DNA from: a virus
Reading direction: 5' to 3' (one strand)
IMG/VR virus record: IMGVR_UViG_3300030118_003002
Location: 1-64,000 of that record
Length of the DNA stretch: 64,000 nucleotides
This document shows positions 26,948-64,000 of this stretch, piece by piece (the first letter of the stretch is position 1; each line of letters begins with the position of its first letter). The notes below the pieces were generated by a model. That model did not search any database and was not told the origin of the DNA. It worked only from the letters and a program-made list of their open reading frames with translations. Both the position numbers and the translations under genes were made by a program.

Positions 26948-28207
26948 ATGTATGAAGTTTTAACAGGAGAACAACGCTCATTGGTTTTTCCAATAATGTG
27001 TAATGCTTTTGTTAAAATGGATTATACAGATAATATACCAAATACAGGTAATGCAGCAACATTTGATGATGTAGCCTATGGTTTATGGGCGCATGAAGGT
27101 TCTTTTTCTTTTGAAGCATTAATTACTCCTTATGAGATTAATGGTAATAGCACTCATCAGACAGAAGTTGACCATTCTAATACTGCTTTAGGTGTAGGAA
27201 ATACTAGAAATGATAGTAAAAAAATAATGGCTGGTTTGTTACAAGAAACATTTGATTTAGGAGTAAGTGATGCTAATGACAGTGGAGAAATGCAAAATGA
27301 ATTGTATTTATCGAGAGCAAATAGAATGACACATGAAATGATGATTTTCAATAATGATAACTTTACAATATCTTTACTTAATTCAACTTCACATACCCAA
27401 AATAATCCGGCAGAATATAAGATTAAAACTACCGTCAAAATAGGAACTACAACCAAAACTACTACTTCTGATATTGTTATCAAGCCAAGTCAAGGACATT
27501 CTTTCAGATATAATAGCACTAACGGTTCTGATTTATTTGCTGGTTTCAATAAAGCAGGGAGGGTTATGTTTGCTAAAGTGGCTACTTCAACAAGCGCATT
27601 CAATAATGATGTTGGTTTTATTGTGGGAGCGACTAATCCAATAGTTGTCGGAAACGAGTTATTTGTTAAAACTTCTGACACTGATGCAAACGCTAACAAA
27701 GGAGCAGGTCACTTTACTTCTTTTGGCAAAGTCCATTCTTCAAGTAGCGGAGATATTGAAATGGTGAATGGTGTAGGGGTTGATGCTGGCTTTGGTGCTG
27801 GAACGGACATATACATACCAACATACAAACACGCATCATACATAGACCAAATGTTTCATGTGGGTTTTACCTTTAACAATAAAACCAAAAAGATTGGAAT
27901 ATATCTTAACGGAGCATTAATCAAAGAAGATACGCATACTGCAAGTGGAACATTTTCTTTTGCTAGAACAGATACTTACATGGGTTCTAATGGGTTGAAT
28001 GATAGAACAGTAAGCGGTATTAATGATGCACATAGTAGCGGAACTGCTTCGGGTAGTAGTGCCGCTACAACTTGCAAACAGTTTATGGGCGAATTTCACG
28101 AATTAGCAATAGTAGGTAAGGTTAGAAAATTTTCAGAAATAGATAATCTTATGCCTAATTTAGATGATACTTTGCTTTATCTAAGATTTGAGGAGGTGGA
28201 TTTATGA
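26948..28207 (+). CDS. tail protein with LamG/concanavalin-A-like domain
   Basis: FSFEALITP...FHVGFTF...IYLNG...YMG...FMGEFHELAI...LLYLRFEE. Confidence 0.75.
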   Translation: MYEVLTGEQRSLVFPIMCNAFVKMDYTDNIPNTGNAATFDDVAYGLWAHEGSFSFEALITPYEINGNSTHQTEVDHSNTALGVGNTRNDSKKIMAGLLQETFDLGVSDANDSGEMQNELYLSRANRMTHEMMIFNNDNFTISLLNSTSHTQNNPAEYKIKTTVKIGTTTKTTTSDIVIKPSQGHSFRYNSTNGSDLFAGFNKAGRVMFAKVATSTSAFNNDVGFIVGATNPIVVGNELFVKTSDTDANANKGAGHFTSFGKVHSSSSGDIEMVNGVGVDAGFGAGTDIYIPTYKHASYIDQMFHVGFTFNNKTKKIGIYLNGALIKEDTHTASGTFSFARTDTYMGSNGLNDRTVSGINDAHSSGTASGSSAATTCKQFMGEFHELAIVGKVRKFSEIDNLMPNLDDTLLYLRFEEVDL

Positions 28208-31200
28208 GTCGTATTTTTGCCGAAGGAAGCGGAGTAGTTAAAGAAATTACTGAACAAGTTACAACTAATGGAAATAACAGTTTAACAGATGTTGATGGAA
28301 CATATTATATTGGCATGGGAGTTACAGGAACAGGCATTCCCGACAATACATATATTACTGCTACTACATTAGGAAGTAATACATTAACCATTTCTAATAA
28401 TGCTACAACATCGGGACAAACCCCAACTCTTGCATTTAACAAAACTAATTATGATACTGCTACTAATCCTAGATTCAAAACATTTGGAGCATATTCGGGA
28501 AGTGAAAGGTTATACACTCTTGTCTATGAACAACCGCCAAATGGCAGTTCGGAAACATTTGTTCAGCAATTAGCAACAGGAGATAGTGCAGATACAGAAT
28601 ATCTTAATTTAGAAACAACAGAAGGGTATAAAATAGTATCTTATGATTTTAATACAGGGGCGGGTTTAGAGTTATCCCTTAATGCTAACTTTGACTATTT
28701 TGTTTTAGTTCATTCTGATGATTATACCAAACATCACTTTGCTAAAATAACTGATACTATTACAGAAAATAATACTAACTATTTAGGTAATATAGAAAAC
28801 ACTGTTGTAGGTTTTGAATTTGAACCAAAATTAGGAAATGAAATAGAAAGAAATACTAAATTTATGGTTTTTAAAGGGCCACCAAAGACTAATAATCTAA
28901 GAGGTTGTAAATTATTAGCAGTTTCAGCAGGTATTAAAGTGGATTTACAAAATGAATTAGTTTGTGCTAGACCGTTGTTTTATTTCTTTAACGATAACCT
29001 AGATAAAGATAATGAATTAGACCATAATACTAAATATTTTATGGAGTTTATTGGGGCGAATGCTACAACAATAACTCCGAATGTATCTAATACTTTTGTT
29101 ACAATTAATGATAATAAAGAAGTTATTAAAGATTATAGTAAATATACACATACAGTGAAAGTAGTTGATAATCTAAAACAGTTTGATTACCCTGCATATG
29201 CTGAATCTGGTAATCTTCCCTTTTCTTTACCTAATGAATCAAATGGTAGTAATTCCTATCCTCTTACTATACCTACTGTTTTTTCAGATTATAATGATTG
29301 TTTTCCTAATGCAAGAAGGGATAGTGATTTAGATATATCTTCAGTTGCTCATCCGGACTTTTCTCTTGGAAGTTCCGCATTAATTTTTACAGGGCCAAAA
29401 AGATACATTCATTATGATTTTTCACCAACAAGAGCAAATAAAACATACAATCTTTTTGATTTACATGTTTTGGATTCTGCTGATAATAGAGGTTCTTATT
29501 TTGAAGGCAAAATGATTGATAATAAAAATATGTTAGATAAAAAATTAAAAAGGCTAGATAAAGTTAGAGTTAGGCATAGATTACATAAAGGAAGGTTCAA
29601 TGATTGGTTTGCACTAAAAGCAAAAGTAAAATCTTCTTTAGGCTCAAATGAATATAGATTTACCACTGAATATGATTTAAGCACTATATTTAATGTAGGC
29701 GATGAAGTTAAATTAGGAAATTCTTTATTGTCTCCTATTCTGATTGTTGACACAATAGATGCTATCAATAATTTCGGCACTACGGGAAAAGAACAAGATA
29801 TTACCTTTAGAGCAGAAAGTCGAACAGAATTAGCAGAAGCCTTTACTAACACAGGATATACTTTGCCAGAAGGAGATGTTATTTACAGAAGGGCTTGGAA
29901 TACTACCGATGGAACATTATTAACTACTTTTGATATTATAGAAAATAGAAACAACAATTTGTATATTAAATTAATATCCAAAGATTTTGCTTTCTTAGAA
30001 GCAACAGTTACGGCTTCGGATGCAAATAAACAATTATTAACTTTAAGTTTCGGTTCAACCAGCCAAAGTAGCACAGAATCGGCTTTAGATTATATGGAAG
30101 GTTCTTATTACATAGAAGTTGAAAAGTTCACAGGTTCTATCGAAAAAATAGTTAAAGGTAAACAAGATGGACAAACTGTATTTACTATTTCAGGAAGGTC
30201 TGATATTAGGAAATTATTAGGCCCAATTATTAATAAAAATACATTACACTCAGAAGATATTATTTATTCCACAAGTAGTCCTTTTGAAAGATTAGGCCAT
30301 GTTCCTAAATATTCTTCTGTCGCAACAACGGTGGTTTGTTCTTTTGATAGTAAAGTTGTGAGTTTTGGGGCGGCACATAATTTAGCAGTAGGCGACCATA
30401 TTTACGCTAATCATGCTGAACACGGAACTATTTCATATATTGGTGAAGTGGCTTCTTTAGGAGAAATAGATGGTAGTAATGCTGATACGGCAGTTACTCT
30501 AAAGGATTTTTCTTTAGCACAAAGTAGCACTAATCCAACAGCAGAAGACTTCGGATTTGTAGCATTAACTGATTATTATGTTTTTAATAAAGCACTGTCT
30601 TCAAATACTGCAATTGATTCAGCAGCAACATTAGCAGGTGCTTCAACAAAAGGACTTTACTTTACAAGCGGAAAAAAAATATTATCCGATGGTTCAGAAA
30701 GCACTACACTAGTAGGTGCAAGTTGTAGCACTAATCCAAAAGCAGTGGGATATTACATAAGCGATACAGAATCAATTTTATCCGATGCTAAGTTTCAAGC
30801 AAGACTTGATGATAATGCTAGCGGAACAACCACTTCGACAGACAAAACTTACGAAGATTTTGATACGGTAAATACATTATTAGATTTTACAGTATTAAAA
30901 ACCATATCGGATGATAATAGAACTGTTGTTACTTTAGCACCATATATGCCTTTAACTTTAGGAAGAGTGGATATTAATTATGCTAATACACAAGACACTA
31001 CATTCAATGCAACTACTTTAGGCACAATAGATTCTATTCCTGTTAATGGTGATGGATGCAGCACTATTAGCGTAGGAACTTCTAGTTATAATGCTCTAAG
31101 CGGAACAGACCCTTTGAAGTATCATGGTGAACCTGTTTATGCTGATGATACTTTCATAGGAAGGTTTATTTTTTCTAAATTCAAAATGAGCAATAGTCAT

Positions 31201-34200
31201 TGTGAAATACATTTAGATGCTGAAGTTCCTTCTAGTATTATAGGTAAAACTGTTAAAACAATTTCGGCAACAGGAAACTTCGGTGAGACTACTAAACAAA
31301 CACATGAATTAAATTTATTAAATGGAGGACATTTACATGGAGGAAAAACGATAGGTGTTCTTCATCCGATGTATAGAAATCTTAGTTCTTCCGCAACGGG
31401 TAAAAATGAAGTTACTTTAATGAATTATTTATTTAATTATAAAAATGCAAGTAATGGAATAAATCAAGCAAGCGATGATATACAGTCTGTTACTTATATT
31501 GAAAAATTTGGCGCACCGTTGTATAGAATATACAATTTAGAAAAAGGTAATTATAATAGAGTCGGTAATTCTATTGCTATAACATTTAGAAGGGCGAATT
31601 TTCCTCTTAGCAGATATTATACAGAAACTCTCAGCAAAGTTCCCTTTTATGCGTCATCATATAAGATAAACTTTGGGAAAACGATAGATGCAACAAGCGG
31701 GTCGCTTGTTTACGATAGTCATATAACAGGTGTAGGTAAAACAGATAAAAATGCTAATAATCACATTTTACCAGAATCAAGAGGATTAACTAATGTTTTA
31801 GGTTCAAGATTTTTTAATACAGTTACTCGTCATAAGAATGCAAATCGGACAGATGTAGTTTTTGCTCCAGATATATCGCAAGACGGACAATATGGCAATC
31901 CGTTTGTTGCAGAGGCTTTTCTTTACCAAATAGACCCAAAAGTGAATAGAATGTTTTTGTTTGTAAATTCAGATAGGCAGCCCTATTCTGCAACAAGACA
32001 TGATAGCCTAATGTTAGCAGGTAAAGATATTACTAATTATAATTTCTTTGGTCTTCAAAAACCTTCCTTAACAGATATTTCGGAAGCAAAAGAATCAGTC
32101 ATGGGTTCAACAACTACGCTCAATTTAACTGACGATGATTTTATTTCCTCGACCATAGTTTCTTCAAGTAAAACAGTTTCTAGTTTAAGTCGCTTTTCTT
32201 TAATGAGATTAACAGAAGTAGTTATAGATTGGGCTTTTAATCAAATAGACCCCGAAAATATTCCATCTTCGGATAGAGCATTACCTTTCTTTACTTATGC
32301 TTCTTATGATTGGGATTTAATAACAGGCGGTTCGGGCTATTGGACAAGTAGCACAAATAACCAAGTGCAAGTCGCTGATTATTCAGGTGCAACATTAACT
32401 GCTGATGTTGATTTAACACCATTAAGCCTAAAGGAATTTGATATTATAGTTGACTCTAATGGGCGAATGTTAGGTAGGGTTAGTAGTGTAGGAGGGACAG
32501 GAAACAAAGTAATTACATTCAAATCGGATATTAAAAAGACCAACCAAAACGCCTACTTTGTTGGTGATTTGTATAGAATAAAAGCATTAGAAGATGGCGG
32601 CTTCCCTACTGAAAATTCCGCTAGAATATTAGGTCGTGGAAAGAAAACTAGTGCGTTTTTTGACAGCCCAATACATATGCTAAAGTCTATTGTAGTAAAT
32701 GATGTTGATGAATATGGAAAATCAGGTTCTCCTTGGCATGATTACCATAGCCATAGTTTAGACGCAGGTGCAGCAGACCATCACGAATTGAATACAATGC
32801 TTCCAATAGCGGTCTTTTTGAATAATGTAAATGAAGACCAAAGCGGAAATCTCGCAGATGCAGATATTATTAGTGGAACGGCTCATACTAAACACCCATT
32901 TACTTTATTTGCGAATATGGATAACATGGATGATAATACCGCTACTGCTACTATTGATGTTGAAAGCGCACTATACAACGGTTTTCTTCCTTTATTTTTA
33001 GATGATTTTGATATTGAAAACGGAGGGGGTAAGAAACAAAATCCAGCAGAAAAGGGTATGGTTGGACAACCTATTACTTCCACTACTAAGTATGAAATTG
33101 ATGGAGGGCTTTCAGCAGGTGATATTGGTCTATTCGGAATGAGAACATTCTTAAATTATGCTCATTTTGAAAATTCACGAAATGCCGGAAACGCTACAAC
33201 AGGGCAACATAGTTCAGTAAATAAAGAAACGGCTCAAGGAGTTATGTTAAGTTTCAAACCTAGATTGTATTTTGATGAAACCGCTACGGCTGTCAATGCT
33301 GCTGGAAACACATCATTCTATCATTACATTATTGATGTTGATGCTAATAAAACAGTAAATCATTTTGATGATTCAGATTCGGATGATTTAGTGGAGTTTT
33401 CAGGCGATTGGAAAAATTCCTATACTAAAAAATCTAGAGTTAATAGAATGAGTCTTAGACACATGAATGACTTAACAGGGTGTTATTTAGTTTCTGAAAA
33501 AGGCAAATATCTTGAAGAAGGTGCAGTTGTAACAAATAGCCTAGAAGTTGCTACTCCAATATCTTTAGATGAAGTTTCTCCTACCACAATAGCCTATGTT
33601 GTTTCTCACGAAGTTGAAACTACTAACACTAATTTAAGACATAATATAATTACCGATAAAGCCCTACCTAACGGGTTTTATAGAATAATGCAACCTAACC
33701 ATACTTGTTTTTATGACTTTTCACCCAAAGAAATAGTGCTTAATACTTTATCTTCAAAATATACAAAGAAAACGGGAGAAAATGCTTGCTATGCTGATAT
33801 TAATTCTTACATAACAACAGGAGAAAAAGCCCCTAGACAAGTAGGTAATTTCAATAATACAGGAGGTAATGAAGCCGCATTATCTATGTATGTTGTTGCT
33901 GATATTGATAGGCAAAGTAGTAGTTCTAACCATGTAGTATTAAGAGAAGGAAATCATTTTGAAAGCATTTTAGAAACAAAGGCGCATGATATGTGTGTAG
34001 CAGACGGAAATACTCATTTTAGAACTTCAATAGAATATATAGATAGCGGATTAGATATAGGGCATACTCTTAAATTTTCAGAAATGAAAGAACAATTAGG
34101 TGTAGTTTCTATTTCTGAAGTATTTGATTTGACTTTGGCTAAGGAACTAGATATAGATTTAGATAGGGCAACAATAGGAAGCACAGTTATTATCGGTAAT

Positions 34201-35097
34201 GAATCGGAAGATTTAATAAATGATTTATTGGAAGAACAAGGAATTGTGTTCGAAAACACTACTCCAGAATATCCTATATTTGTTGCTCCTAATTATCAAG
34301 GGATTGACTTATTTTCAGCAATTAATTATCTATTAGATAAAAAAGAAAAGGTCATATTTCACGATAATGACAATTTTAAGATAAAAGCAAAAGAAGATTC
34401 ATTCTTCGATACAGGAGTTTTTGTTAGCGATACTTCAGATGTTGAGTTATATGACTATGAAAAAAAGGAAGACTTATTTAATTTGAAAAATGAAATTGTA
34501 GTGTATGGTGCTAGACACAAAGCAGTTAGAAGCAATTTCCAAAGCATAAAAGAAGATGGAAAGAAAACTTTAGAAATATATGATGACAAATTAACAACGC
34601 AAGAAGAAGTTAATACCAGAGCAGACCAAGAATTAGAATTACATACTACTTTGAATGAAAATATAACAATAGAAGTAGGACATAAACATTTATCACAGAT
34701 AAGAGCAGGGGATTCGTTAGAATTAGAAATACCTAGAGAAAATATACCTAGAAATAAATACAAAGTAGTTCAAAATGAACATTTATTAACAGGAAATATG
34801 AGATTACAGTTAGGAAGATATAGTAAAATTTTAGAAGATAGATTTGCAGAATTAGCAATTGAGGCTAGAGAAATAAGAAGTTCTATTAGAGAAAAAAGAT
34901 TTGATGAAAGTAGCGTAGGTTTTGTTGACAATACTAAGGTTAAAATTAAACCTATCCGATTCATTATTAGAGAGAGAAGTAGCAGTGGTGGTGCAGTGTT
35001 AGGTTTTGGAACACATCTAAATACCAACACCCGACCACTAGGACATGAGGATGGACAAGGCGTTACTCACACAATATTATTGGAGGAAGAGTTTTGA
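28204..35097 (+). CDS. very large tail tip/baseplate hub protein (2297 aa)
   Basis: Thr/Ser/Asn-rich; hub-like C-terminus (NEIVVYG...A..EL...AGD.LEL). Confidence 0.7.
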   Translation: MSRIFAEGSGVVKEITEQVTTNGNNSLTDVDGTYYIGMGVTGTGIPDNTYITATTLGSNTLTISNNATTSGQTPTLAFNKTNYDTATNPRFKTFGAYSGSERLYTLVYEQPPNGSSETFVQQLATGDSADTEYLNLETTEGYKIVSYDFNTGAGLELSLNANFDYFVLVHSDDYTKHHFAKITDTITENNTNYLGNIENTVVGFEFEPKLGNEIERNTKFMVFKGPPKTNNLRGCKLLAVSAGIKVDLQNELVCARPLFYFFNDNLDKDNELDHNTKYFMEFIGANATTITPNVSNTFVTINDNKEVIKDYSKYTHTVKVVDNLKQFDYPAYAESGNLPFSLPNESNGSNSYPLTIPTVFSDYNDCFPNARRDSDLDISSVAHPDFSLGSSALIFTGPKRYIHYDFSPTRANKTYNLFDLHVLDSADNRGSYFEGKMIDNKNMLDKKLKRLDKVRVRHRLHKGRFNDWFALKAKVKSSLGSNEYRFTTEYDLSTIFNVGDEVKLGNSLLSPILIVDTIDAINNFGTTGKEQDITFRAESRTELAEAFTNTGYTLPEGDVIYRRAWNTTDGTLLTTFDIIENRNNNLYIKLISKDFAFLEATVTASDANKQLLTLSFGSTSQSSTESALDYMEGSYYIEVEKFTGSIEKIVKGKQDGQTVFTISGRSDIRKLLGPIINKNTLHSEDIIYSTSSPFERLGHVPKYSSVATTVVCSFDSKVVSFGAAHNLAVGDHIYANHAEHGTISYIGEVASLGEIDGSNADTAVTLKDFSLAQSSTNPTAEDFGFVALTDYYVFNKALSSNTAIDSAATLAGASTKGLYFTSGKKILSDGSESTTLVGASCSTNPKAVGYYISDTESILSDAKFQARLDDNASGTTTSTDKTYEDFDTVNTLLDFTVLKTISDDNRTVVTLAPYMPLTLGRVDINYANTQDTTFNATTLGTIDSIPVNGDGCSTISVGTSSYNALSGTDPLKYHGEPVYADDTFIGRFIFSKFKMSNSHCEIHLDAEVPSSIIGKTVKTISATGNFGETTKQTHELNLLNGGHLHGGKTIGVLHPMYRNLSSSATGKNEVTLMNYLFNYKNASNGINQASDDIQSVTYIEKFGAPLYRIYNLEKGNYNRVGNSIAITFRRANFPLSRYYTETLSKVPFYASSYKINFGKTIDATSGSLVYDSHITGVGKTDKNANNHILPESRGLTNVLGSRFFNTVTRHKNANRTDVVFAPDISQDGQYGNPFVAEAFLYQIDPKVNRMFLFVNSDRQPYSATRHDSLMLAGKDITNYNFFGLQKPSLTDISEAKESVMGSTTTLNLTDDDFISSTIVSSSKTVSSLSRFSLMRLTEVVIDWAFNQIDPENIPSSDRALPFFTYASYDWDLITGGSGYWTSSTNNQVQVADYSGATLTADVDLTPLSLKEFDIIVDSNGRMLGRVSSVGGTGNKVITFKSDIKKTNQNAYFVGDLYRIKALEDGGFPTENSARILGRGKKTSAFFDSPIHMLKSIVVNDVDEYGKSGSPWHDYHSHSLDAGAADHHELNTMLPIAVFLNNVNEDQSGNLADADIISGTAHTKHPFTLFANMDNMDDNTATATIDVESALYNGFLPLFLDDFDIENGGGKKQNPAEKGMVGQPITSTTKYEIDGGLSAGDIGLFGMRTFLNYAHFENSRNAGNATTGQHSSVNKETAQGVMLSFKPRLYFDETATAVNAAGNTSFYHYIIDVDANKTVNHFDDSDSDDLVEFSGDWKNSYTKKSRVNRMSLRHMNDLTGCYLVSEKGKYLEEGAVVTNSLEVATPISLDEVSPTTIAYVVSHEVETTNTNLRHNIITDKALPNGFYRIMQPNHTCFYDFSPKEIVLNTLSSKYTKKTGENACYADINSYITTGEKAPRQVGNFNNTGGNEAALSMYVVADIDRQSSSSNHVVLREGNHFESILETKAHDMCVADGNTHFRTSIEYIDSGLDIGHTLKFSEMKEQLGVVSISEVFDLTLAKELDIDLDRATIGSTVIIGNESEDLINDLLEEQGIVFENTTPEYPIFVAPNYQGIDLFSAINYLLDKKEKVIFHDNDNFKIKAKEDSFFDTGVFVSDTSDVELYDYEKKEDLFNLKNEIVVYGARHKAVRSNFQSIKEDGKKTLEIYDDKLTTQEEVNTRADQELELHTTLNENITIEVGHKHLSQIRAGDSLELEIPRENIPRNKYKVVQNEHLLTGNMRLQLGRYSKILEDRFAELAIEAREIRSSIREKRFDESSVGFVDNTKVKIKPIRFIIRERSSSGGAVLGFGTHLNTNTRPLGHEDGQGVTHTILLEEEF

Positions 35098-56201: not shown

Positions 56202-56331
56202 TTATAATCATCTCCATATTTTTATTTACTGTCTTAACCAATTCTTTTAGAAGGCGGCTAATTTTACCTTCGTGCTTTTCAGCATAAGTCCACATAGCAT
56301 TTGCTAAGTAAATCCATTCATTCTTCTTCAT
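56098..56331 (-). CDS. hypothetical protein
   Basis: Fills operon gap. Confidence 0.5.
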   Translation of the reverse strand: MKKNEWIYLANAMWTYAEKHEGKISRLLKELVKTVNKNMEMIINDNEQTSETIRKHRPENTNTTSFDDNGTSGNIQE

Positions 56332-56686
56332 CAGAAGCCGCCCCTTGTTCTATACTATTCATCATTCTAACATAATTAATCATCATAGTCTGCATTACTG
56401 CTGACTCTTCATTTTTATTTTGTTCCATTAAACGATGTAGCATATGAATCATCGAGGCTTGACTGATAGCAGGTGCTAATCTAGCCAAATTGTCGGAATT
56501 AAACATTTCCCAATACATCACAAATGATGCTCTTGGTAAGAACATACCATTCCTAACTACGGCATAATTGCTCTCAAAATGACCCAATGCCGCAGGGTTG
56601 TTCTTAATTTTCTTTTTCATGGCTTTTGCCCATTCAATAAATCTTTTATCATTCGTTACATCTAAAAATATCTTATTCAAATTCAT
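56318..56686 (-). CDS. hypothetical protein
   Basis: ATGA coupling. Confidence 0.65.
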   Translation of the reverse strand: MNLNKIFLDVTNDKRFIEWAKAMKKKIKNNPAALGHFESNYAVVRNGMFLPRASFVMYWEMFNSDNLARLAPAISQASMIHMLHRLMEQNKNEESAVMQTMMINYVRMMNSIEQGAASDEEE

Positions 56687-56964
56687 TCTTCTTCATCTCC
56701 AAATAGTCTATTCAATAATAATAATTTCAACATATGTCCTTGAAACTTACTCCAAGATTTATCAATATGTTCCTTAGTTACTCTCGAACCCCTTCCTTCA
56801 CCCGCACCAACGGGCATTTCTAATTCTATGAATGCAGACCATAAATCAATCAATTCAGTTGAATATCTTCTATGTCTATCTAAAGCACCCATTTCAAATT
56901 GCCTATGCTTATTCGCTTTTCTAACGCTCGCTTTCGCTTGCACTTCACTAATTCTAAATTTCAT
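56683..56964 (-). CDS. hypothetical protein, possible divergent histone fold
   Basis: Short helix, about 27-aa helix, then SRVTKEHID. Confidence 0.55.
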   Translation of the reverse strand: MKFRISEVQAKASVRKANKHRQFEMGALDRHRRYSTELIDLWSAFIELEMPVGAGEGRGSRVTKEHIDKSWSKFQGHMLKLLLLNRLFGDEEE

Positions 56965-57158: not shown

Positions 57159-57558
57159 TAAACCATCCCTCCTTGAATTTCTCTAACTCCTTTCTTGAAG
57201 TAAAGTATCTCGGTGTATCTAATTCATCTAAACGATTAACAACCCAACAAGCACCACCTAAAGATGATACCTGAACTATTTCATATTGGCCTTCATTTAT
57301 TTCAATGACCTCGATAGTATTCACTTCGGGAACTAAGCCATAATTTCTAGTTATTTCGTTAGCAACATCATGTATATTCTCAATGACATATTTGATAATA
57401 TGCGCTCTTTGAATCGGTATCTTTGGTGCTACTTGAATAGATAACTTTCCGGTCATTTTACAAACCTTACACTTATTACCTTCACAAATAGGACATTTAA
57501 CCTCTGCCGCATGAGGAGCAGGTAAAGTTACAGTTACGGCTCTTTTCTTCATATTCAT
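57151..57558 (-). CDS. protein with DnaJ-type Zn-finger repeats
   Basis: CPICEG..CKVCKMTG. Confidence 0.65.
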   Translation of the reverse strand: MNMKKRAVTVTLPAPHAAEVKCPICEGNKCKVCKMTGKLSIQVAPKIPIQRAHIIKYVIENIHDVANEITRNYGLVPEVNTIEVIEINEGQYEIVQVSSLGGACWVVNRLDELDTPRYFTSRKELEKFKEGWFSE

Positions 57559-59072
57559 TCCTCTCTCAAAACTGCTACTTCGGTAGTTAGGAAAAGTTTT
57601 GCTATTGACATAGCCGCAAGGAAACTGTTTCTAGTTACCTTTACAGGGTCAACAATACCCAATTCAAACATATTTCCCACTTCACCTGTCATAGCATTTA
57701 TTGATTCATTTGTTTCTAAAGGAAGATAATGCAAATCATCAACACTACTGTTATCACATAAAGTAATAAACGGTGCAATTAACGATTCATACACTACATG
57801 ATGACCCTTCTTTGCTACATCTAAAGAATCTCTAGCATTAAGAAGTGCCTTACCTCCACCAATAACAATACCTTCGTCAAGTGCTGCTTTAGTAGCATTA
57901 AGCGCATCATCTAATCTTTCTTTAGTTTCACGCATTTCCATTTGTGAAGATGCACCAACTTGAATAGTAGCAATACCGCCATTCAATCTTGCTATCCGCT
58001 TTTTGTATCGCATCTTGTCATACTTGTCATCTGTTGATTCATACAACTCTTTCAATGAAAATACTTTGTGCTTCTTAGAATCTGAATCAGCATTACCTCC
58101 ACCGATGATAACTGTATTATCTTTTGAAATAATTACTCTATCAGCAGTTCCCAATTCATCTAAAGTAGCCATTGAAGGTTCATCTTCGCTTTCTTCGTTA
58201 AACATTTTACCGCCACAAACAGTTACAATATCGTCTAACTCATCTAATTGAGCATCACCGAAGTTTGGTGCTTTTACCACTGCTACTTCAATTGTCTTTT
58301 GAAGAACATTCATAATTACATTACTTAGTGCAGTGCCTTCCATACCACGACAAATGATTACCAATGGTTTCTTATTCTTAGCACATAATTCTAGCAACGG
58401 AAGTATTTCTTGAAAGTGTCTAATGTTCAGGTTAGATGAAAAGATAACGGGATTATCAAAGGTTACTTTGCCGTCTTCTCCATTACACATCATATGACTT
58501 AGATAGCCTTCATCAAACTCTAAACCGCTTCTTGTGACTATTTGTGTTTTATGAGTTTTAGATTCTTCAACAGTGATGATACCATCACGCCCTACCGCAC
58601 TGATAGCCTCTTGAATTAGAGAACCTAACTCATCATCATTATTAGCCGCAATAGTAGCAACATTCAGAATATCATCATCAAGAATAGGTATTGCGTTATC
58701 TATTAGATAAGAAGCAATAATTTCTTGAGCCTCTTGTAATTCATTTTGAAGCACTCTAATGTTATAATTCTCTTGTTTCTGAATATTCTCAACAAGTGCT
58801 TGAGCAATAATACAAGCAGTTGTTGTTCCATCGCCAGAATTATCTTGTGCTTTGCTTGCTAAGTTTTGCACCATTTGGACTCCCATTTGAACATAAGGGT
58901 CATTACTTGATACATACTTAGTAATTGTAACTCCGTCATTAATTATAACAGGAGGATTACCTTGCAAAATAACTGTTTTTGCTTGTGGCCCTAATGTTGG
59001 TTTAACGGTATTTGCTACTAAATCAATTCCTTCTTTCAATTTCTGTTTTACTTCTTCTCCATTAATTATCAT
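57555..59072 (-). CDS. groEL: group I chaperonin (GroEL-like)
   Basis: TLGP, NDGVTI, GDGTTT, GIITVEE, KAPNFGD, ATKAALDEGIVIGGG, GIVDPVKV. Confidence 0.92.
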   Translation of the reverse strand: MIINGEEVKQKLKEGIDLVANTVKPTLGPQAKTVILQGNPPVIINDGVTITKYVSSNDPYVQMGVQMVQNLASKAQDNSGDGTTTACIIAQALVENIQKQENYNIRVLQNELQEAQEIIASYLIDNAIPILDDDILNVATIAANNDDELGSLIQEAISAVGRDGIITVEESKTHKTQIVTRSGLEFDEGYLSHMMCNGEDGKVTFDNPVIFSSNLNIRHFQEILPLLELCAKNKKPLVIICRGMEGTALSNVIMNVLQKTIEVAVVKAPNFGDAQLDELDDIVTVCGGKMFNEESEDEPSMATLDELGTADRVIISKDNTVIIGGGNADSDSKKHKVFSLKELYESTDDKYDKMRYKKRIARLNGGIATIQVGASSQMEMRETKERLDDALNATKAALDEGIVIGGGKALLNARDSLDVAKKGHHVVYESLIAPFITLCDNSSVDDLHYLPLETNESINAMTGEVGNMFELGIVDPVKVTRNSFLAAMSIAKLFLTTEVAVLREE

Positions 59073-59218
59073 TATAATCTCTCCAATCCATAATATCCTT
59101 CTTCTTGAACAGGCATAGCATTAAAGTTAGCCCAGCATTTTTCGCTACAAAAATATCTCCAACCGGTAGCACCAAACGCTTTGTATCTAATTGCACTTTG
59201 TCCACAATTATCACACAT
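59072..59218 (-). CDS. 48-aa TRASH/treble-clef Zn-finger microprotein (not in ORF track)
   Basis: MCDNCG...YFCSEKC; TAATG coupling at both ends. Confidence 0.65.
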   Translation of the reverse strand: MCDNCGQSAIRYKAFGATGWRYFCSEKCWANFNAMPVQEEGYYGLERL

Positions 59219-59433
59219 TATACCACCGCCAAAATAAACTCATAGGGAATAAACAGAATATCGTTCTGCCTTGTATATTCTCTTTTATCATTAAAAAGAA
59301 CAACCTTATCTCTAAGGCTGGTATCAACCTTACAATCTATTACTCTCCCTTGATTAGCGGCTTTAGTCAAAATACCGCTTTCGCTTTTTGTTTCTTCTAT
59401 TTTCACAATTACATATTCTCCTACTGCTTTCAT
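59218..59433 (-). CDS. groES: co-chaperonin (GroES-like)
   Basis: MKAVGEYVIVK...SESGIL...G.V...DKVVLF...ILAVV. Confidence 0.8.
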   Translation of the reverse strand: MKAVGEYVIVKIEETKSESGILTKAANQGRVIDCKVDTSLRDKVVLFNDKREYTRQNDILFIPYEFILAVV

Positions 59434-59609
59434 TCCGCATCACCTAAAGGGGTTATTTCAAATGGCAACTGCCAAATTGTTTTTGTTCTGTTATTTAGCA
59501 AAAACTGAATAGCGTCATATTCATCTTGATGATGTTGACTATTCTCTCTCATAATATCCAAATAACTTATTATTTCATCTAATACTTCTGCCTTTATTTT
59601 TGTATTCAT
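59430..59609 (-). CDS. 59-aa hypothetical protein (not in ORF track)
   Basis: ATGA overlaps at both ends; MNTKIKAEVLDEII. Confidence 0.55.
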   Translation of the reverse strand: MNTKIKAEVLDEIISYLDIMRENSQHHQDEYDAIQFLLNNRTKTIWQLPFEITPLGDAE

Positions 59610-59878
59610 TCTTCTTCACCTTTGAATTTATTATTTCTCGCCACTTGGCAACATACTCTAATTTTCTGTGTTGACTGCAATCCCCAAAAAGAACCTTCAT
59701 CCCAGCCGAACTTAAATTCAACATAATTACATAATTCTCTTCTTGTCATTCTTTGAAAATCATCATCAATCTTAATACCTAAGATTTTATCATTATCTTC
59801 ATACTTTACAAACTTGTCTAATGTAACATAAACAAGACCCATAAACCATATTGTCTTTTTAAGCATCCATTGTATCAT
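59606..59878 (-). CDS. hypothetical protein
   Basis: ATGA coupling. Confidence 0.6.
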   Translation of the reverse strand: MIQWMLKKTIWFMGLVYVTLDKFVKYEDNDKILGIKIDDDFQRMTRRELCNYVEFKFGWDEGSFWGLQSTQKIRVCCQVARNNKFKGEEE

Positions 59879-60189
59879 TCTTCTTCACCACTGATGTTAA
59901 CCCATCCCTTATTCATATCAGCATCAATATATGTCCAAATATGATTCTTATGGAATTCCATTAAGTCTTTGTAAGAATTACCTTTCTTACCCCAATAAAC
60001 TCCCTTCTTTGGATTAGTAGTATTTTTATCATTAGGGTGTTTTGACATATGCCTTCGCTTTCTTTCACTTAGAGTTATTCTAGTGACTGCCTTAGCATCC
60101 GATTCGCCATATTGTGTTTCTTTATTGAACGGCTTTCCTTTGTATTGTCTAATTGCATTATTTCCACTTTTAATTTTTCTAAATCTCAT
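59875..60189 (-). CDS. basic hypothetical protein
   Basis: ATGA coupling. Confidence 0.6.
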   Translation of the reverse strand: MRFRKIKSGNNAIRQYKGKPFNKETQYGESDAKAVTRITLSERKRRHMSKHPNDKNTTNPKKGVYWGKKGNSYKDLMEFHKNHIWTYIDADMNKGWVNISGEEE

Positions 60190-60731
60190 TCTTCTTCATC
60201 TCCTTTTCTAACCCAAACTTGGGTTCTTTCATATTCATGGTTACGGTATATATCTAATAGATAAGGTTCTTTTTGACTCCAAGAACCATAATGCCCATCT
60301 CCACCTAACACATAAGCAGTCTTCATTAATGGTTGCCAAATACTAACTGTTCTAATATCAGTTCCACTGAAATAAGCACTACCGAATGGGTGTGTGTGAA
60401 TCCAGCACTTAATCGGCAATTTCATTCCAACAGGGTCAATTTGAAAATCAACATAACCGGCTGAACCTGACGAAATATGAATAGCATCATTAGAATCAAT
60501 AACAACTTGAACCTCTAAACCATTCAGTATTTCTGTTGAAGCAAACCAAATATGTTCAAATAAATCTTTTATTTCCATACCTTGTTTATAATAAGCATCA
60601 ATATGATTCTCCGCTTCTGCTCTTGCTATTTCTAAATCAGTTTCTAAATCAACCTTACAATCACACTTACCACCATAATATACTAAATTACCACAATCCA
60701 TGCACTGTTCCGCACTCCAATTTTTTCCCAT
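60186..60731 (-). CDS. JAB/MPN+ (JAMM) metallo-isopeptidase
   Basis: E (GLEVQV)...HTHPFGSAYFSGTD = H-x-H-x7-S-x2-D. Confidence 0.85.
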   Translation of the reverse strand: MGKNWSAEQCMDCGNLVYYGGKCDCKVDLETDLEIARAEAENHIDAYYKQGMEIKDLFEHIWFASTEILNGLEVQVVIDSNDAIHISSGSAGYVDFQIDPVGMKLPIKCWIHTHPFGSAYFSGTDIRTVSIWQPLMKTAYVLGGDGHYGSWSQKEPYLLDIYRNHEYERTQVWVRKGDEEE

Positions 60732-61814
60732 TTATTTCATCTCCATTTTCTTTAATTTTCTTTGGGTCTTTGCTAATTTCTTCTCTAACCGCTTTTGCTT
60801 TTTAGCGTTTCTCTTATCTCTCCAACGCTTCCTAAGCGAAGGTTTTCTTTCTGCTAACTTATTAGCCTCTAACTGTTTCTTGATACCTGCGGCCTCCATA
60901 AGCAACGATTTACTTTCAGCATATGTAAAGTCAAAATGCTTCTCGATATGTTTTGCTATTACCCAATATGGGCGACCAAACTTTTCTCTCGCATCATCAA
61001 TTGACATAGAATGCCACATTACCAACGCTTCTAATGATTCATCATATGTCCAAGGTTTGTTAGTATTAGGATATTCAATACTTTCATTATTCAAGCGAGT
61101 CCAATTTTTAGGTAATTTTCTTGTCGCTGACTCAGGTGCTTCGTGAGAGAATAATGTTCTCTCCGTAGGTATTTCATTTTGAAGAGTATATGTGCCATTC
61201 TTTCTAACTGTCTTAATAGAAGGCGTTAGATGTTTTAGGCTTCTTAACCATCTTTCACGACACGCTCTATGTGTTCTATTCAAATTAGGAGGAAAGCCTT
61301 GTTCTCCATCTTTATGTTCATTCATCCAATTAACCAAAAGAGCATCTTCTTTTGGAGTCCAACGGGTTGAATTACCACTGTATAACAAGTTGGTATTATT
61401 CTTCGCTTTAACATTAAAAGATTGAGTCTCTAATAGTGTAGTCTCTAATAGTTTAATCTGCTCATTAGCGGCCTCTTTATCGAATTCGCCACGCTTTGAG
61501 GCTTCTATTAACTCATTTGTTAATTTAGTAATTTCGCTAGTTTTAGCGTCAGGCAGTGTCATAGAAGCAATATACTTGCATTGTTTTCTTGTGGCAGGGT
61601 CACTTCTCCAATCACTTGTTTTAGGTTCATCATCAAAAGATATGTTATATTGATTGATACATCTTCTAATAGTAGCACCATAATTATCCACTGTTCTATC
61701 AGGATAGCCTTCTTTATCCATTTGAGCCTTAATTTCAGGCCAAGTTCTTTTTTCCACTAAACGCAAATATGCGCCTCTCATTATTTGTTCTGTTGTCCAT
61801 TTCTCTCCTTTCAT
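60732..61814 (-). CDS. Myb/SANT-like repeat DNA-binding protein
   Basis: KWTTEQ...RTVDN, RWTPKEDALL...NRTHRACRERW, PWTYDE...FGRP. Confidence 0.7.
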   Translation of the reverse strand: MKGEKWTTEQIMRGAYLRLVEKRTWPEIKAQMDKEGYPDRTVDNYGATIRRCINQYNISFDDEPKTSDWRSDPATRKQCKYIASMTLPDAKTSEITKLTNELIEASKRGEFDKEAANEQIKLLETTLLETQSFNVKAKNNTNLLYSGNSTRWTPKEDALLVNWMNEHKDGEQGFPPNLNRTHRACRERWLRSLKHLTPSIKTVRKNGTYTLQNEIPTERTLFSHEAPESATRKLPKNWTRLNNESIEYPNTNKPWTYDESLEALVMWHSMSIDDAREKFGRPYWVIAKHIEKHFDFTYAESKSLLMEAAGIKKQLEANKLAERKPSLRKRWRDKRNAKKQKRLEKKLAKTQRKLKKMEMK

Positions 61815-61825
61815 TTTTATTCCTC

Positions 61826-62386
61826 CTATACATTAATTACCATAAAGGATTTTACATCTTCTTTGTTAAACCATCTTTGAATCCATTGTGCGCCAATACC
61901 TGCAATAACAACTTGCATGAAATGAACGCCACTATTACTTCCATCCCATGAATCTCCTTGACAAGAAAATGAACCATCTGGCCCTGCTAATAAAGAATCA
62001 TACATTTTAGGGTCTGCATCAGAAGTAACAAAAGCCCCATTACGACCTTGCGCTCTTAAATCCAACCATTTAATATTTGAATTATACAATGTTCTTCTAA
62101 CTGATAAATTATCAACACAACATACAACTAAATCATATCCTTGCATTTGTTTAGCAGTTAGGATAGGAAACTTGCTTGCATTATTAACACTATTATATCG
62201 AGCATTCATCCTACTTACTTTGTGAAAATTAACATCTTCTTCTGTAAAGTTTTGATATGTTAAATTCTTAGTTTCGACCTTATCGGGGTCTGCTACTGAA
62301 ATATCATACATTCCTACTTTATCTAATAGTGGCACTAGGAAACTCCCAATACCACCTACTCCTATAATCAATATTTTTCTTTTCAT
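61826..62386 (-). CDS. ThiF/MoeB/E1-like adenylating enzyme
   Basis: GVGGIGS, DPDKVETKNL..Q, VDNLSVR, C-terminal SC. Confidence 0.85.
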   Translation of the reverse strand: MKRKILIIGVGGIGSFLVPLLDKVGMYDISVADPDKVETKNLTYQNFTEEDVNFHKVSRMNARYNSVNNASKFPILTAKQMQGYDLVVCCVDNLSVRRTLYNSNIKWLDLRAQGRNGAFVTSDADPKMYDSLLAGPDGSFSCQGDSWDGSNSGVHFMQVVIAGIGAQWIQRWFNKEDVKSFMVINV

Positions 62387-63018
62387 TCTAATCTCTCCAA
62401 TTTTGCATTCCATTTTTTATTATAATTATCTATTTCTTCGTTGTATTTGTTTTTGTAGTGGTCTTTAGGCCACCACTTTGGCATTCTTTTTGCCCTCCAT
62501 TCAGCAAACCTCCATTTACCTTGAAGGTAATAGTGTCTGTAACTATTAATTACGAAGTCCCAATCGGGAATCCTGTTATCTTTAACTAATCTATACTTAT
62601 CATCCATAGCAATAGTTACAGGTGTAGCAAACGACCAATTAGAATCTTCATCAATCGTATATGCTATATCTAGTATTCTAGATTGCGAACCATGAACCTT
62701 ACCGTAGCGATAGGTATATTCTTCACATAATGCTTTACCATGTTCATATAACCATCGAGTATTATGAGGGTTCTGTCTAGCCCATATTGTTGAAGGATGA
62801 TTCAACATAGCAGGTTTCATTAGTCTTGAATTAATATCTCTATGAAACTGCTTTACTTGTGCTAAAGTAGGTTCTTCACCATAATGTTCAATGTAGTCAA
62901 AATACAAAACATTTGTATGTAACATTTGACAAGTTTCCGTTGGCATTTTAACTATGTGTTTGTCTAACATTTCTAGTGCCGCTTCTTGCGGATTTCTTGA
63001 TAGTGCAAATATATTCAC
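62383..63018 (-). CDS. pyrimidine-dimer DNA glycosylase (DenV/endonuclease V)-like protein
   Basis: MNIF.L...DKHIVKMPTETCQML...HPSTIWAR...EYTYRYGKVH...YR.YY. Confidence 0.75.
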   Translation of the reverse strand: MNIFALSRNPQEAALEMLDKHIVKMPTETCQMLHTNVLYFDYIEHYGEEPTLAQVKQFHRDINSRLMKPAMLNHPSTIWARQNPHNTRWLYEHGKALCEEYTYRYGKVHGSQSRILDIAYTIDEDSNWSFATPVTIAMDDKYRLVKDNRIPDWDFVINSYRHYYLQGKWRFAEWRAKRMPKWWPKDHYKNKYNEEIDNYNKKWNAKLERLE

Positions 63019-63194: not shown

Positions 63195-64000
63195 TTATAT
63201 CACCATATTCTATTATATCTCGCCCTTTAATTTCGGACATTCTATTAAATCCTAACATTTGGATTAATTTTTTACTTGTCTTTCCTATTGCTGATAAGGA
63301 AATATCTGTGCTTTCAGAAATATCATTCTTAGTTACACCATAATATCTAAACATATTTGTCGCCACCCAGCATACACTTGCGTAATATGCCTTTGATTTA
63401 TGATAACAATGGTCTTCTATGATAGGTTCTAACTTTAACATCAAATCCATAGCATTAGAATAAAACATCACATCATCTGTTATTCTAGAACAGGTCTGCT
63501 TTAACATAAAAGAAGGGTCTGCTCCGTAAAGTATATTCTTACTCTTAAAGTGGTGAATCATTTTACGCACTAATCTATTCACTACTTTAGTTGAACATGA
63601 ATATTCAGAACATAATTCTTTCATAGGAACAGGTGTTCTATTTTCTTTCAGAACATAAAAGACAACAGCAGTGCATCTAGCCTCTAGTTTGATTTTACCA
63701 AACAAACCTTTCTTCTGTGCTTCTAAGTAACATTCCTTAACTCTATCTTTAAGAGGGTGGTTTATTTGAATAGAAGATAGAATCATATTACAGGTCTGCA
63801 AACCAGCAGTAATATGTCTAGGAATAACATTATTGTTTCCTCTCCTATTAAACTTAAATGAACCCTTTCCTGTTATTATAGAACCCAATTCTCCTCTTTC
63901 AGCAGAATGAACAACCTTTCCGTCATCTATCATTCTGACACTTTCTTCAAACAAATCTGTTACGACCACTAATCCGCAATCGCTACATTCTGTTTCTCCT
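63151..64000 (-). CDS. tfb: transcription factor B (TFIIB)-like protein, 5' end outside window
   Basis: Frame open to the edge: GETECSDCGLVV Zn ribbon, then two cyclin-like repeats with HTH. Confidence 0.8.
   Translation of the reverse strand, partial: GETECSDCGLVVVTDLFEESVRMIDDGKVVHSAERGELGSIITGKGSFKFNRRGNNNVIPRHITAGLQTCNMILSSIQINHPLKDRVKECYLEAQKKGLFGKIKLEARCTAVVFYVLKENRTPVPMKELCSEYSCSTKVVNRLVRKMIHHFKSKNILYGADPSFMLKQTCSRITDDVMFYSNAMDLMLKLEPIIEDHCYHKSKAYYASVCWVATNMFRYYGVTKNDISESTDISLSAIGKTSKKLIQMLGFNRMSEIKGRDIIEYGDINDNKNERCNTDKRA

Follow-up and report, generated by a model that had tools for sequence, protein, structure and literature searches.

Prokaryotic systems that combine a ubiquitin-like protein (Ubl), an E1-like enzyme and a JAB peptidase serve in cellular sulfur transfer, in archaeal sampylation and, as recognized recently, in anti-phage defense by Bil and the cyclic oligonucleotide-based antiphage signaling system (CBASS). 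The small archaeal modifier proteins (SAMPs) of sampylation double as sulfur carriers that work with cellular partner enzymes. Here we analyze an E1-like gene and a JAB gene that lie close together in a viral genome, within the first 64,000 bases (the window) of IMG/VR record IMGVR_UViG_3300030118_003002, which is 96,234 bases long and rated complete by CheckV. By its gene set, the virus appears to be a magrovirus, one of the tailed viruses that infect Marine Group II (MGII, or Poseidoniales) archaea. We lean toward reading the two genes as parts of a virus-encoded Ubl conjugation and deconjugation module, to which a Ubl and a 416-amino-acid (aa) cysteine protein, both encoded beyond the window, also belong (Table 1).

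Bil (BilABCD), the class 6 operons of Iyer, Burroughs and Aravind, and the PRTRC cassette have the makeup Ubl-E2-JAB-E1 (PMC1779556, PMC10557695). The viral locus resembles Bil and class 6 in its parts list only: a β-grasp Ubl ending in Gly-Gly (GG), an E1 with a catalytic-type cysteine, a JAB, and a separate cysteine protein in the position of the E2. It differs in being encoded by a virus and not in a cellular defense island, in an E1 of about 186 aa that lacks the arginine finger and the MoeB-type C-terminal region, and in a cysteine domain that forms the C terminus of a larger protein (416 aa in the virus, 630 to 850 aa in a lineage of phages described below) and matches neither Prok-E2 nor UQ_con. 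Against the PRTRC_ThiF model of the PRTRC cassette (class 6d), which has a cut-off of 144.75 bits, the window E1 scored 41.5 bits and the phage E1 56.6 bits. The SAMP/UbaA/HvJAMM1 system and Thermus TtuB/TtuC likewise combine one E1 with a GG β-grasp modifier and a JAMM desampylase, and the host lineage of the virus is archaeal too. However, the window E1 reached only 30.8 bits with the UbaA model (cut-off, 450) and has no Zn-binding CxxC pairs, the viral module has the additional conserved cysteine protein, and the sulfur partner enzymes are missing from the viral genome. The first-pass annotation had connected the pair with Bil or with CBASS Cap2/Cap3, and CBASS does combine an E1 adenylation domain with a JAB isopeptidase, with Cap2 among the best structural matches to the viral E1. 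That connection found no support: the viral E1 stands alone without a fused E2, the PADLOC E1-E2 models align only with its N-terminal Rossmann part, there is a free Ubl instead of a cGAS/DncV-like nucleotidyltransferase (CD-NTase) substrate gene, the magrovirus JAB has no Cap3 match in PADLOC, and the scores are below the family cut-offs. ThiS/ThiF and MoaD/MoeB share both protein folds, the C-terminal GG and the adenylation chemistry, but the viral set has no Zn site and no ThiG or MoaE partner, it includes a JAB and the extra cysteine protein, and its Ubl misses the Pfam ThiS family. Membership in Cap2/Cap3 or in ThiF/MoeB was rejected because the features that define them are absent. By its sequences, the locus appears to work like a Ubl conjugation module but to belong to a branch that has not been filed, all scores for ThiF, MoeB, UbaA, TcdA, PRTRC_ThiF, Cap2 and Cap3 being below cut-off.

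The E1-like protein most likely starts at M10 of its open reading frame (ORF), because its homologues are about 185 aa long. It matches the ThiF domain (PF00899) with an E value of 4e-17 and 62.7 bits, compared with a gathering cut-off of 28.1, and gave 61.2 bits in a six-frame search of the genome. The AlphaFold model (predicted local distance difference test [pLDDT], 91.2) has a Rossmann-type adenylation fold with the Gly-rich loop and the Asp/Lys/Asp residues for nucleotide and Mg binding. It resembles UBA5 (E value, 3e-12; template modeling [TM] score, 0.75), ThiF (TM, 0.77), MoeB (TM, 0.76) and Cap2, with TM scores of about 0.75. The characteristic residues are GxGGxGS, D33, K56, D92-N, R97, D109-x-R111 and S-C142-Q, and among them G9, G12, D33, K56 and D92 are invariant in the family alignment. 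The first-pass annotation had described a ThiF/E1 domain with a C-terminal cysteine (GSFSCQ) and without Zn CxxC pairs, and this description stands. That cysteine, which is C142 counted from M10 and C151 in the long ORF, is invariant in 77 family members with 27 to 76% identity and is situated within the sole low-confidence loop of the model (residues ~135 to 155), which we infer to correspond to the flexible loop that bears the catalytic cysteine in E1 enzymes. Apart from UbaA, the NCBIfam equivalogs also scored far below their cut-offs: 54.9 of 275 bits for TIGR02356, 49.8 of 159 for PRK08644, 39.4 of 266 for MoeB and 19.2 of 304 for TcdA, which excludes the protein from the ThiF, MoeB, UbaA and TcdA equivalogs. 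Neither the window E1 nor the phage-lineage E1 has a close relative among GenBank phage records; the only matches are distant crAss-like ThiF proteins annotated as thiamine biosynthesis protein, at about 30% identity over half of the protein.

The JAB sequence contains HTHPFGSAYFSGTD. Its motif reads H112-T-H114-P-x6-S122-x2-D125, with E73 located 39 residues upstream, in agreement with the JAMM pattern (E ... HxHx7Sx2D), and across 71 distinct homologues from magroviruses, E73, H112, H114, S122 and D125 each show at least 95% conservation. An intact JAMM motif had been reported at this place on the minus strand, correctly, and its catalytic residues are conserved. Since the bare motif is also found by chance in unrelated ORFs, we base the JAB assignment on conservation and synteny. 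When the magrovirus JAB was compared with the phage JABs using hhalign, the motif block alone aligned (probability, 69%). From its conserved catalytic residues and its position, the magrovirus JAB reads as a diverged JAMM enzyme, and it is predicted to trim the tail of the Ubl precursor, to act as a deconjugase, or both. An N-terminal CxxC...CxC stretch resembling a zinc ribbon was considered as a family feature and rejected, as only 3 of the 71 homologues have it.

We examined 80 magrovirus-like loci, 79 of which had enough downstream sequence and 30 of which had at least about 6 kb upstream. The JAB lies downstream of the E1 in 79 of 79, sometimes directly adjacent, and the two genes are spaced -39 to ~2,000 bp apart in relatives. 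Of the 30 loci with sufficient sequence upstream, 26 showed a Ubl gene; in the other four, the Ubl is probably just outside the flank, and the contig of L016 shows the Ubl in L005. Whether the E1 and the JAB co-occur across relatives had been named as a check on the first-pass annotation, and they do: besides the magrovirus loci, the two are adjacent in the phage lineage and in a host metagenome-assembled genome (MAG). Given this linkage, the E1 and the JAB would be a true functional pair. The single gene between them in the window had been called a Myb-repeat gene; the gene is there, but the Myb match is weak and below cut-off. In relatives, this gene is 23 to 91% identical or absent, and we rejected it as a part of the module for this reason.

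It had been suggested that a Ubl might lie past position 64,000, and the rest of the genome indeed encodes one. Its AlphaFold model (pLDDT, 92.8) shows the β-grasp strand order bb-a-bb-(a)-b. Structural neighbors found with Foldseek and VIA-align are mostly NEDD8, ubiquitin, ISG15, MoaD, CysO, SAMP1 and a bacterial Ubl. The top Foldseek matches (NEDD8, ubiquitin, ISG15 and MoaD) have probabilities of 0.8 to 0.98, and the structural Z scores, 5.6 for MoaD and 5.1 for the bacterial Ubl 8tyz_B, are modest, as expected for 66 aa. No Pfam family matched the protein, including ThiS (PF02597) at an E value of ≤0.1, or at ≤1 in the genome search, and its profile gave nothing significant against PDB sequences. 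The Ubl has 556 relatives in the database. Among the 120 of these that were listed, the terminal PAIVGG is near-invariant, and G65 and G66 are invariant in 46 aligned sequences. Of the listed homologues, 42 stop exactly at GG, as does the Ubl of the window genome, and about 65% have variable residues past it, most adding two (NY, NL, VC, SY, SC, etc.), a pattern that reads as that of a Ubl precursor. One homologue carries the name Poseidoniales virus YSH_150918. The family also has an invariant G11-H12, which is part of GHTE in magroviruses and of GHDE in phages, and magroviruses further have near-invariant H29, H32 and W33; these conserved histidines could form a His-rich surface or a metal site.

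The 416-aa protein is notable for C363, in the motif W-K-G-P-I-C-I-D-N, the sole cysteine column at 100% in 59 distinct homologues with 33 to 93% identity. The invariant cysteine is held by the C-terminal ~150 aa. A domain of this kind is also found in a second viral lineage, in which 27 of 29 distinct loci have a protein of 630 to 850 aa encoded directly upstream of the Ubl, with an invariant cysteine in Y-I-C-I-V-D-K ... N-R-I-Y-A-L-H-N-D at its C terminus. The C-terminal domains of the 416-aa protein and the phage protein aligned in hhalign with a probability of 88% and an E value of 2.9e-6, the cysteine motifs lying opposite each other, compared with 0.2 to 0.5% for unrelated control pairs in the same profile-profile comparison. 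Because a homologous cysteine domain thus accompanies both lineages, the module consists of four genes in both. The 416-aa protein may be an E2-like carrier, possibly a highly diverged E2.

The contigs of the second lineage (16 to 230 kb) are those of bacterial phages, as judged from a sigma-70 factor, a family A DNA polymerase and an intein-bearing ribonucleotide reductase. About 23 of the 29 loci have an overlapping Ubl(GG)-JAB-E1 operon in which the JAB has a canonical ExxG...HxHx7Sx2D motif. The phage-lineage E1s are 29 to 54% identical to the phage E1 of locus L012 and about 37% identical to the window virus E1. The best curated match of the phage E1 is PRTRC_ThiF, over the full length, and that of the phage JAB is the archaeal desampylase NF041370 (E value, 5e-19); the phage JABs also match Cap3 models. 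Six of the 29 loci have no JAB within 6 kb, and in all six the Ubl terminates at GG, while all seven loci with a Ubl tail or C-terminal fusion have a JAB; so few loci do not allow a statistical test. At one phage locus (L127:4674-5495, plus strand), a Ubl (...LLKGG) reads on without a stop into a Cys-rich extension of ~200 aa, and release of the Ubl from this fusion would need cleavage after GG. Elsewhere in the lineage, the class II ribonucleotide reductase is split by an intein with an HNH endonuclease (L012:3130-6507, plus strand).

Diverged members of the family are also present in Poseidoniales genomes. Among representatives at 50% identity, there are E1s fused to one or two N-terminal Ubl domains that each end in LVGG (P0265, P0342 and P0380). 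P0342, the fusion with two Ubl domains, comes from two Candidatus Poseidoniales MAGs, and in one of these (L176), a weak match to the Cys-domain profile at the cysteine motif is followed by the P0342 fusion and then a JAB. One host genome encodes three members of the short-E1 family (125 to 137 bits with the family hidden Markov model), one of them followed by a JAMM gene, and separately a canonical E1 of the MoeB/UbaA type that scores 31 bits with the same model. This low score of the housekeeping enzyme argues that the viral E1 does not group with cofactor E1s. A grouping with tRNA- or cofactor-modifying ThiF enzymes would have counted against the first-pass annotation; both this separation and the equivalog scores go the other way.

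A sequence of steps can be proposed for the module from sequence, predicted structure and gene context, only the gene anatomy being observed directly. In relatives whose Ubl has a tail (usually of two residues) or is fused to the E1, the JAMM peptidase would cut after GG. The 186-aa E1 would bind ATP and adenylate Gly66 of the Ubl, Cys142 of its SCQ motif would take up the Ubl as a thioester, and the 416-aa protein, as an E2-like carrier, would then receive the Ubl on Cys363. The N-terminal ~260 residues of that protein may select targets, the Ubl would end up on lysines of viral or host proteins, and the JAB would also strip the tag. A JAB is retained even with Ubls that need no trimming, such as the GG-ending Ubl of the window genome, suggesting that trimming is not its sole function. 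Tandem and fused Ubl precursors must be freed by endoproteolysis, which we counted in favor of conjugation, and the missing sulfur partners and tRNA genes, the conserved cysteine protein and the affinity to PRTRC_ThiF and desampylase would count on the same side. The first-pass annotation had proposed that the virus runs its own conjugation system or hijacks and reverses host SAMP tagging; the GG β-grasp Ubl and the conserved single-cysteine protein support the first alternative, whereas the second is unsupported and, with a Ubl of the virus's own, not needed.

Several observations weigh against conjugation. A search of the genome and its relatives for Ubl and E2 folds had been suggested, and it yielded the Ubl but no E2 by sequence: the 416-aa protein matched UQ_con and Prok-E2 in none of Pfam, PADLOC, NCBIfam and PDB sequences, and it has no HPN motif. 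Only its G-P-I-C-I-D recalls the E2 motif G-x-I-C-L-D. A Pfam search with 40 members of the family at E values of ≤10 gave nothing, the ESM Atlas gave no match for the 416-aa protein and a poor model for the phage homologue, and a profile search of 5.8 billion proteins with the cysteine protein recovered only truncated magrovirus copies. The E1 lacks the arginine finger (N-L-x-R-Q motif), the column that aligns to the Arg of UBA5 NMNRL being Tyr (74%) or His. The JAB reached 21.5 bits, short of the Pfam Prok-JAB/JAB gathering score of 25, with an E value of 2e-4 over the motif region only. Finally, the best structural matches of the Ubl include the sulfur carriers MoaD, CysO and TtuB at modest Z scores of 4 to 5.6, and triads of Ubl, E1 and JAB are also documented in sulfur-transfer pathways, CysO/Mec+ and QbsE/QbsD (PMC1779556).

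The last two points lead to the strongest alternative, which we nevertheless regard as unlikely, that the Ubl is a sulfur carrier. The E1 would adenylate the Ubl, a thiocarboxylate formed at the Ubl C terminus would then be the sulfur donor for a cofactor, nucleotide, tRNA or small molecule, and the JAB would trim the precursor or release a C-terminal adduct, as Mec+ does for CysO. The conserved E1 cysteine could form an acyl disulfide, as in ThiF, and ThiF types (TIGR02356 and PRK08644) are the top curated models for the window E1, but the ThiF/MoeB equivalog scores are all under the cut-offs (by a factor given as 4-10 fold), and the host keeps a separate canonical MoeB/UbaA-type E1. The Ubl gene adjoins a class II ribonucleotide reductase gene in magroviruses, and the phage-lineage module is near one. 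However, the complete 96-kb genome has no tRNA gene, and no PP-loop thiolase (TtuA/NcsA type), rhodanese, MoaE or ThiG was found in it at an E value of ≤1, although host enzymes could supply the absent steps and partners. A sulfur carrier is also harder to square with an extra invariant-cysteine protein conserved with the module in two viral lineages and with tandem Ubl-Ubl-E1 fusions that resemble polyubiquitin precursors.

We consider it improbable that the genes serve purely in counter-defense, the viral JAB stripping host SAMP or Ubl conjugates and the viral E1 or Ubl competing with or poisoning a related host module without forming productive viral conjugates. In favor of this, diverged copies of the module family exist in Poseidoniales genomes, CBASS and Bil offer examples of JAB-type enzymes that undo Ubl tagging (PMC10557695), and the phage JAB resembles a desampylase; yet the virus retains a full set, with its own Ubl and invariant catalytic-type E1 residues, the module is present in bacterial phages too, and nothing marks the host module as a defense system. 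Least probable is a non-conjugating role, either in assembly or processing, for which phage Ubl and JAB pairs such as lambda tail I (Ubl) and K (JAB) are a precedent (PMC1779556), or in making a small molecule with a peptide-modifying E1 of the kind of MccB and PaaA, both of which, like AclA, the E1 matches in structure. Against such a role, the genes are in the replication/early block and not among the structural genes, an invariant-cysteine E1 is always present, and the Ubl is no short precursor peptide but a folded β-grasp protein whose GG is strictly conserved.

Returning to conjugation, we tentatively extend the proposal to a previously undescribed four-part Ubl system common to magroviruses, uncultivated phages and Poseidoniales, with which the viruses would tag host or viral proteins during infection; this wider claim is plausible but more doubtful than that for the window virus. 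Its parts would be a Ubl ending in GG, whose precursor in many cases has a tail, a tandem copy or a fused E1, a minimal E1 of ~186 aa with a catalytic SCQ cysteine, the cysteine carrier family and a JAMM protease. The magrovirus literature that we searched does not mention ThiF, ubiquitin or JAB in its text, and literature searches on phage- or virus-encoded ubiquitin-like systems returned nothing relevant and no description of the module. If the proposal is true, this would be the first virus-run ubiquitin-like tagging known outside eukaryotic viruses, and it might, for example, redirect the host proteasome or transcription machinery. The logic of the cellular systems would then be found on the virus side, in archaeal viruses that are among the most abundant in the surface ocean and in an uncultivated phage lineage, with an unusually small E1 and a cysteine partner that is in no filed family. 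Conjugation by the module would mean that archaeal and bacterial viruses manipulate cells by ubiquitin-like tagging; it would also offer a minimal E1 for mechanistic work and Ubl precursors (tailed, tandem and E1-fused) that inform the origin of ubiquitin signaling. The parts are small and suited to direct in vitro work.

Table 1. Module genes and other features of the viral genome (coordinates are those of the IMG/VR record; the window ends at 64000)
Feature	Position	Strand	Basis
Minimal E1-like adenylation enzyme, 186 aa from M10	61826-62386 (ORF to 62413)	-	Pfam PF00899, AlphaFold model, conservation
JAMM/JAB metallopeptidase, 181 aa	60186-60731	-	Catalytic motif, conservation, synteny
β-Grasp Ubl, 66 aa, ends PAIVGG	68133-68333 (L002:8133-8333), beyond window	-	AlphaFold model, conserved GG
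416-aa Cys protein	64037-65287, beyond window	-	Invariant C363, WKGPICIDN
Myb/SANT-like repeat protein, 360 aa	60732-61814	-	Myb_DNA-bind_6 E 0.016, below cut-off
Pyrimidine-dimer DNA glycosylase-like gene	62383-63018	-	Pfam Pyr_excise E 7e-8; PHROG 624 E 2e-49
TFIIB-like gene	63151-64059 (past window end)	-	Weak NCBIfam PRK00423 match
Cpn60/TCP-1-family chaperonin	57555-59072	-	Pfam E 1e-47
71-aa ORF upstream of chaperonin	59218-59433	-	Faint Cpn10-like match, E 0.008, below cut-off
Single 2297-aa ORF in plus-strand block	28204-35097	+	ORF call

The genome has genes of magrovirus type, namely, a TFIIB-like factor, a Cpn60/TCP-1-family chaperonin, an ATP-dependent DNA ligase and a class II ribonucleotide reductase, together with terminase and portal candidates recognized from translations only. 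Relatives sit on marine contigs of 90 to 98 kb. Between 64059 and ~56300 every gene is on the minus strand, with starts and stops often overlapping, and the Ubl, E1 and JAB belong to a co-directional early/replication block with the TFIIB-like factor, the reductase, the chaperonin and the ligase. Given this location, the module is likely to be active while the virus takes over its Poseidoniales (MGII) host. The glycosylase-like gene is directly upstream of the E1, its stop overlapping the E1 start. The TFIIB-like factor, which has an N-terminal zinc ribbon and is conserved in relatives, is encoded between the E1 block and the gene for the 416-aa cysteine protein.

Beyond the window, at 80099-86603 on the plus strand, at least 11 small genes in a row encode proteins that begin alike, with M-(S/T/N)-W-(K/E)-(D/N/E)-I-(I/L)-K, and differ from there on; their appearance is that of paralogues or of carriers of a common N-terminal signal. 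Among the 133 called proteins of the genome, 9 end in EEE and 16 in EE, including the JAB and four genes at 56318-56964 and 59606-60189. The codons GAAGAA stand immediately before the overlapping start of the next gene, and given this position a purine-rich sequence for ribosome binding or coupling may have produced the acidic tails as a side effect.

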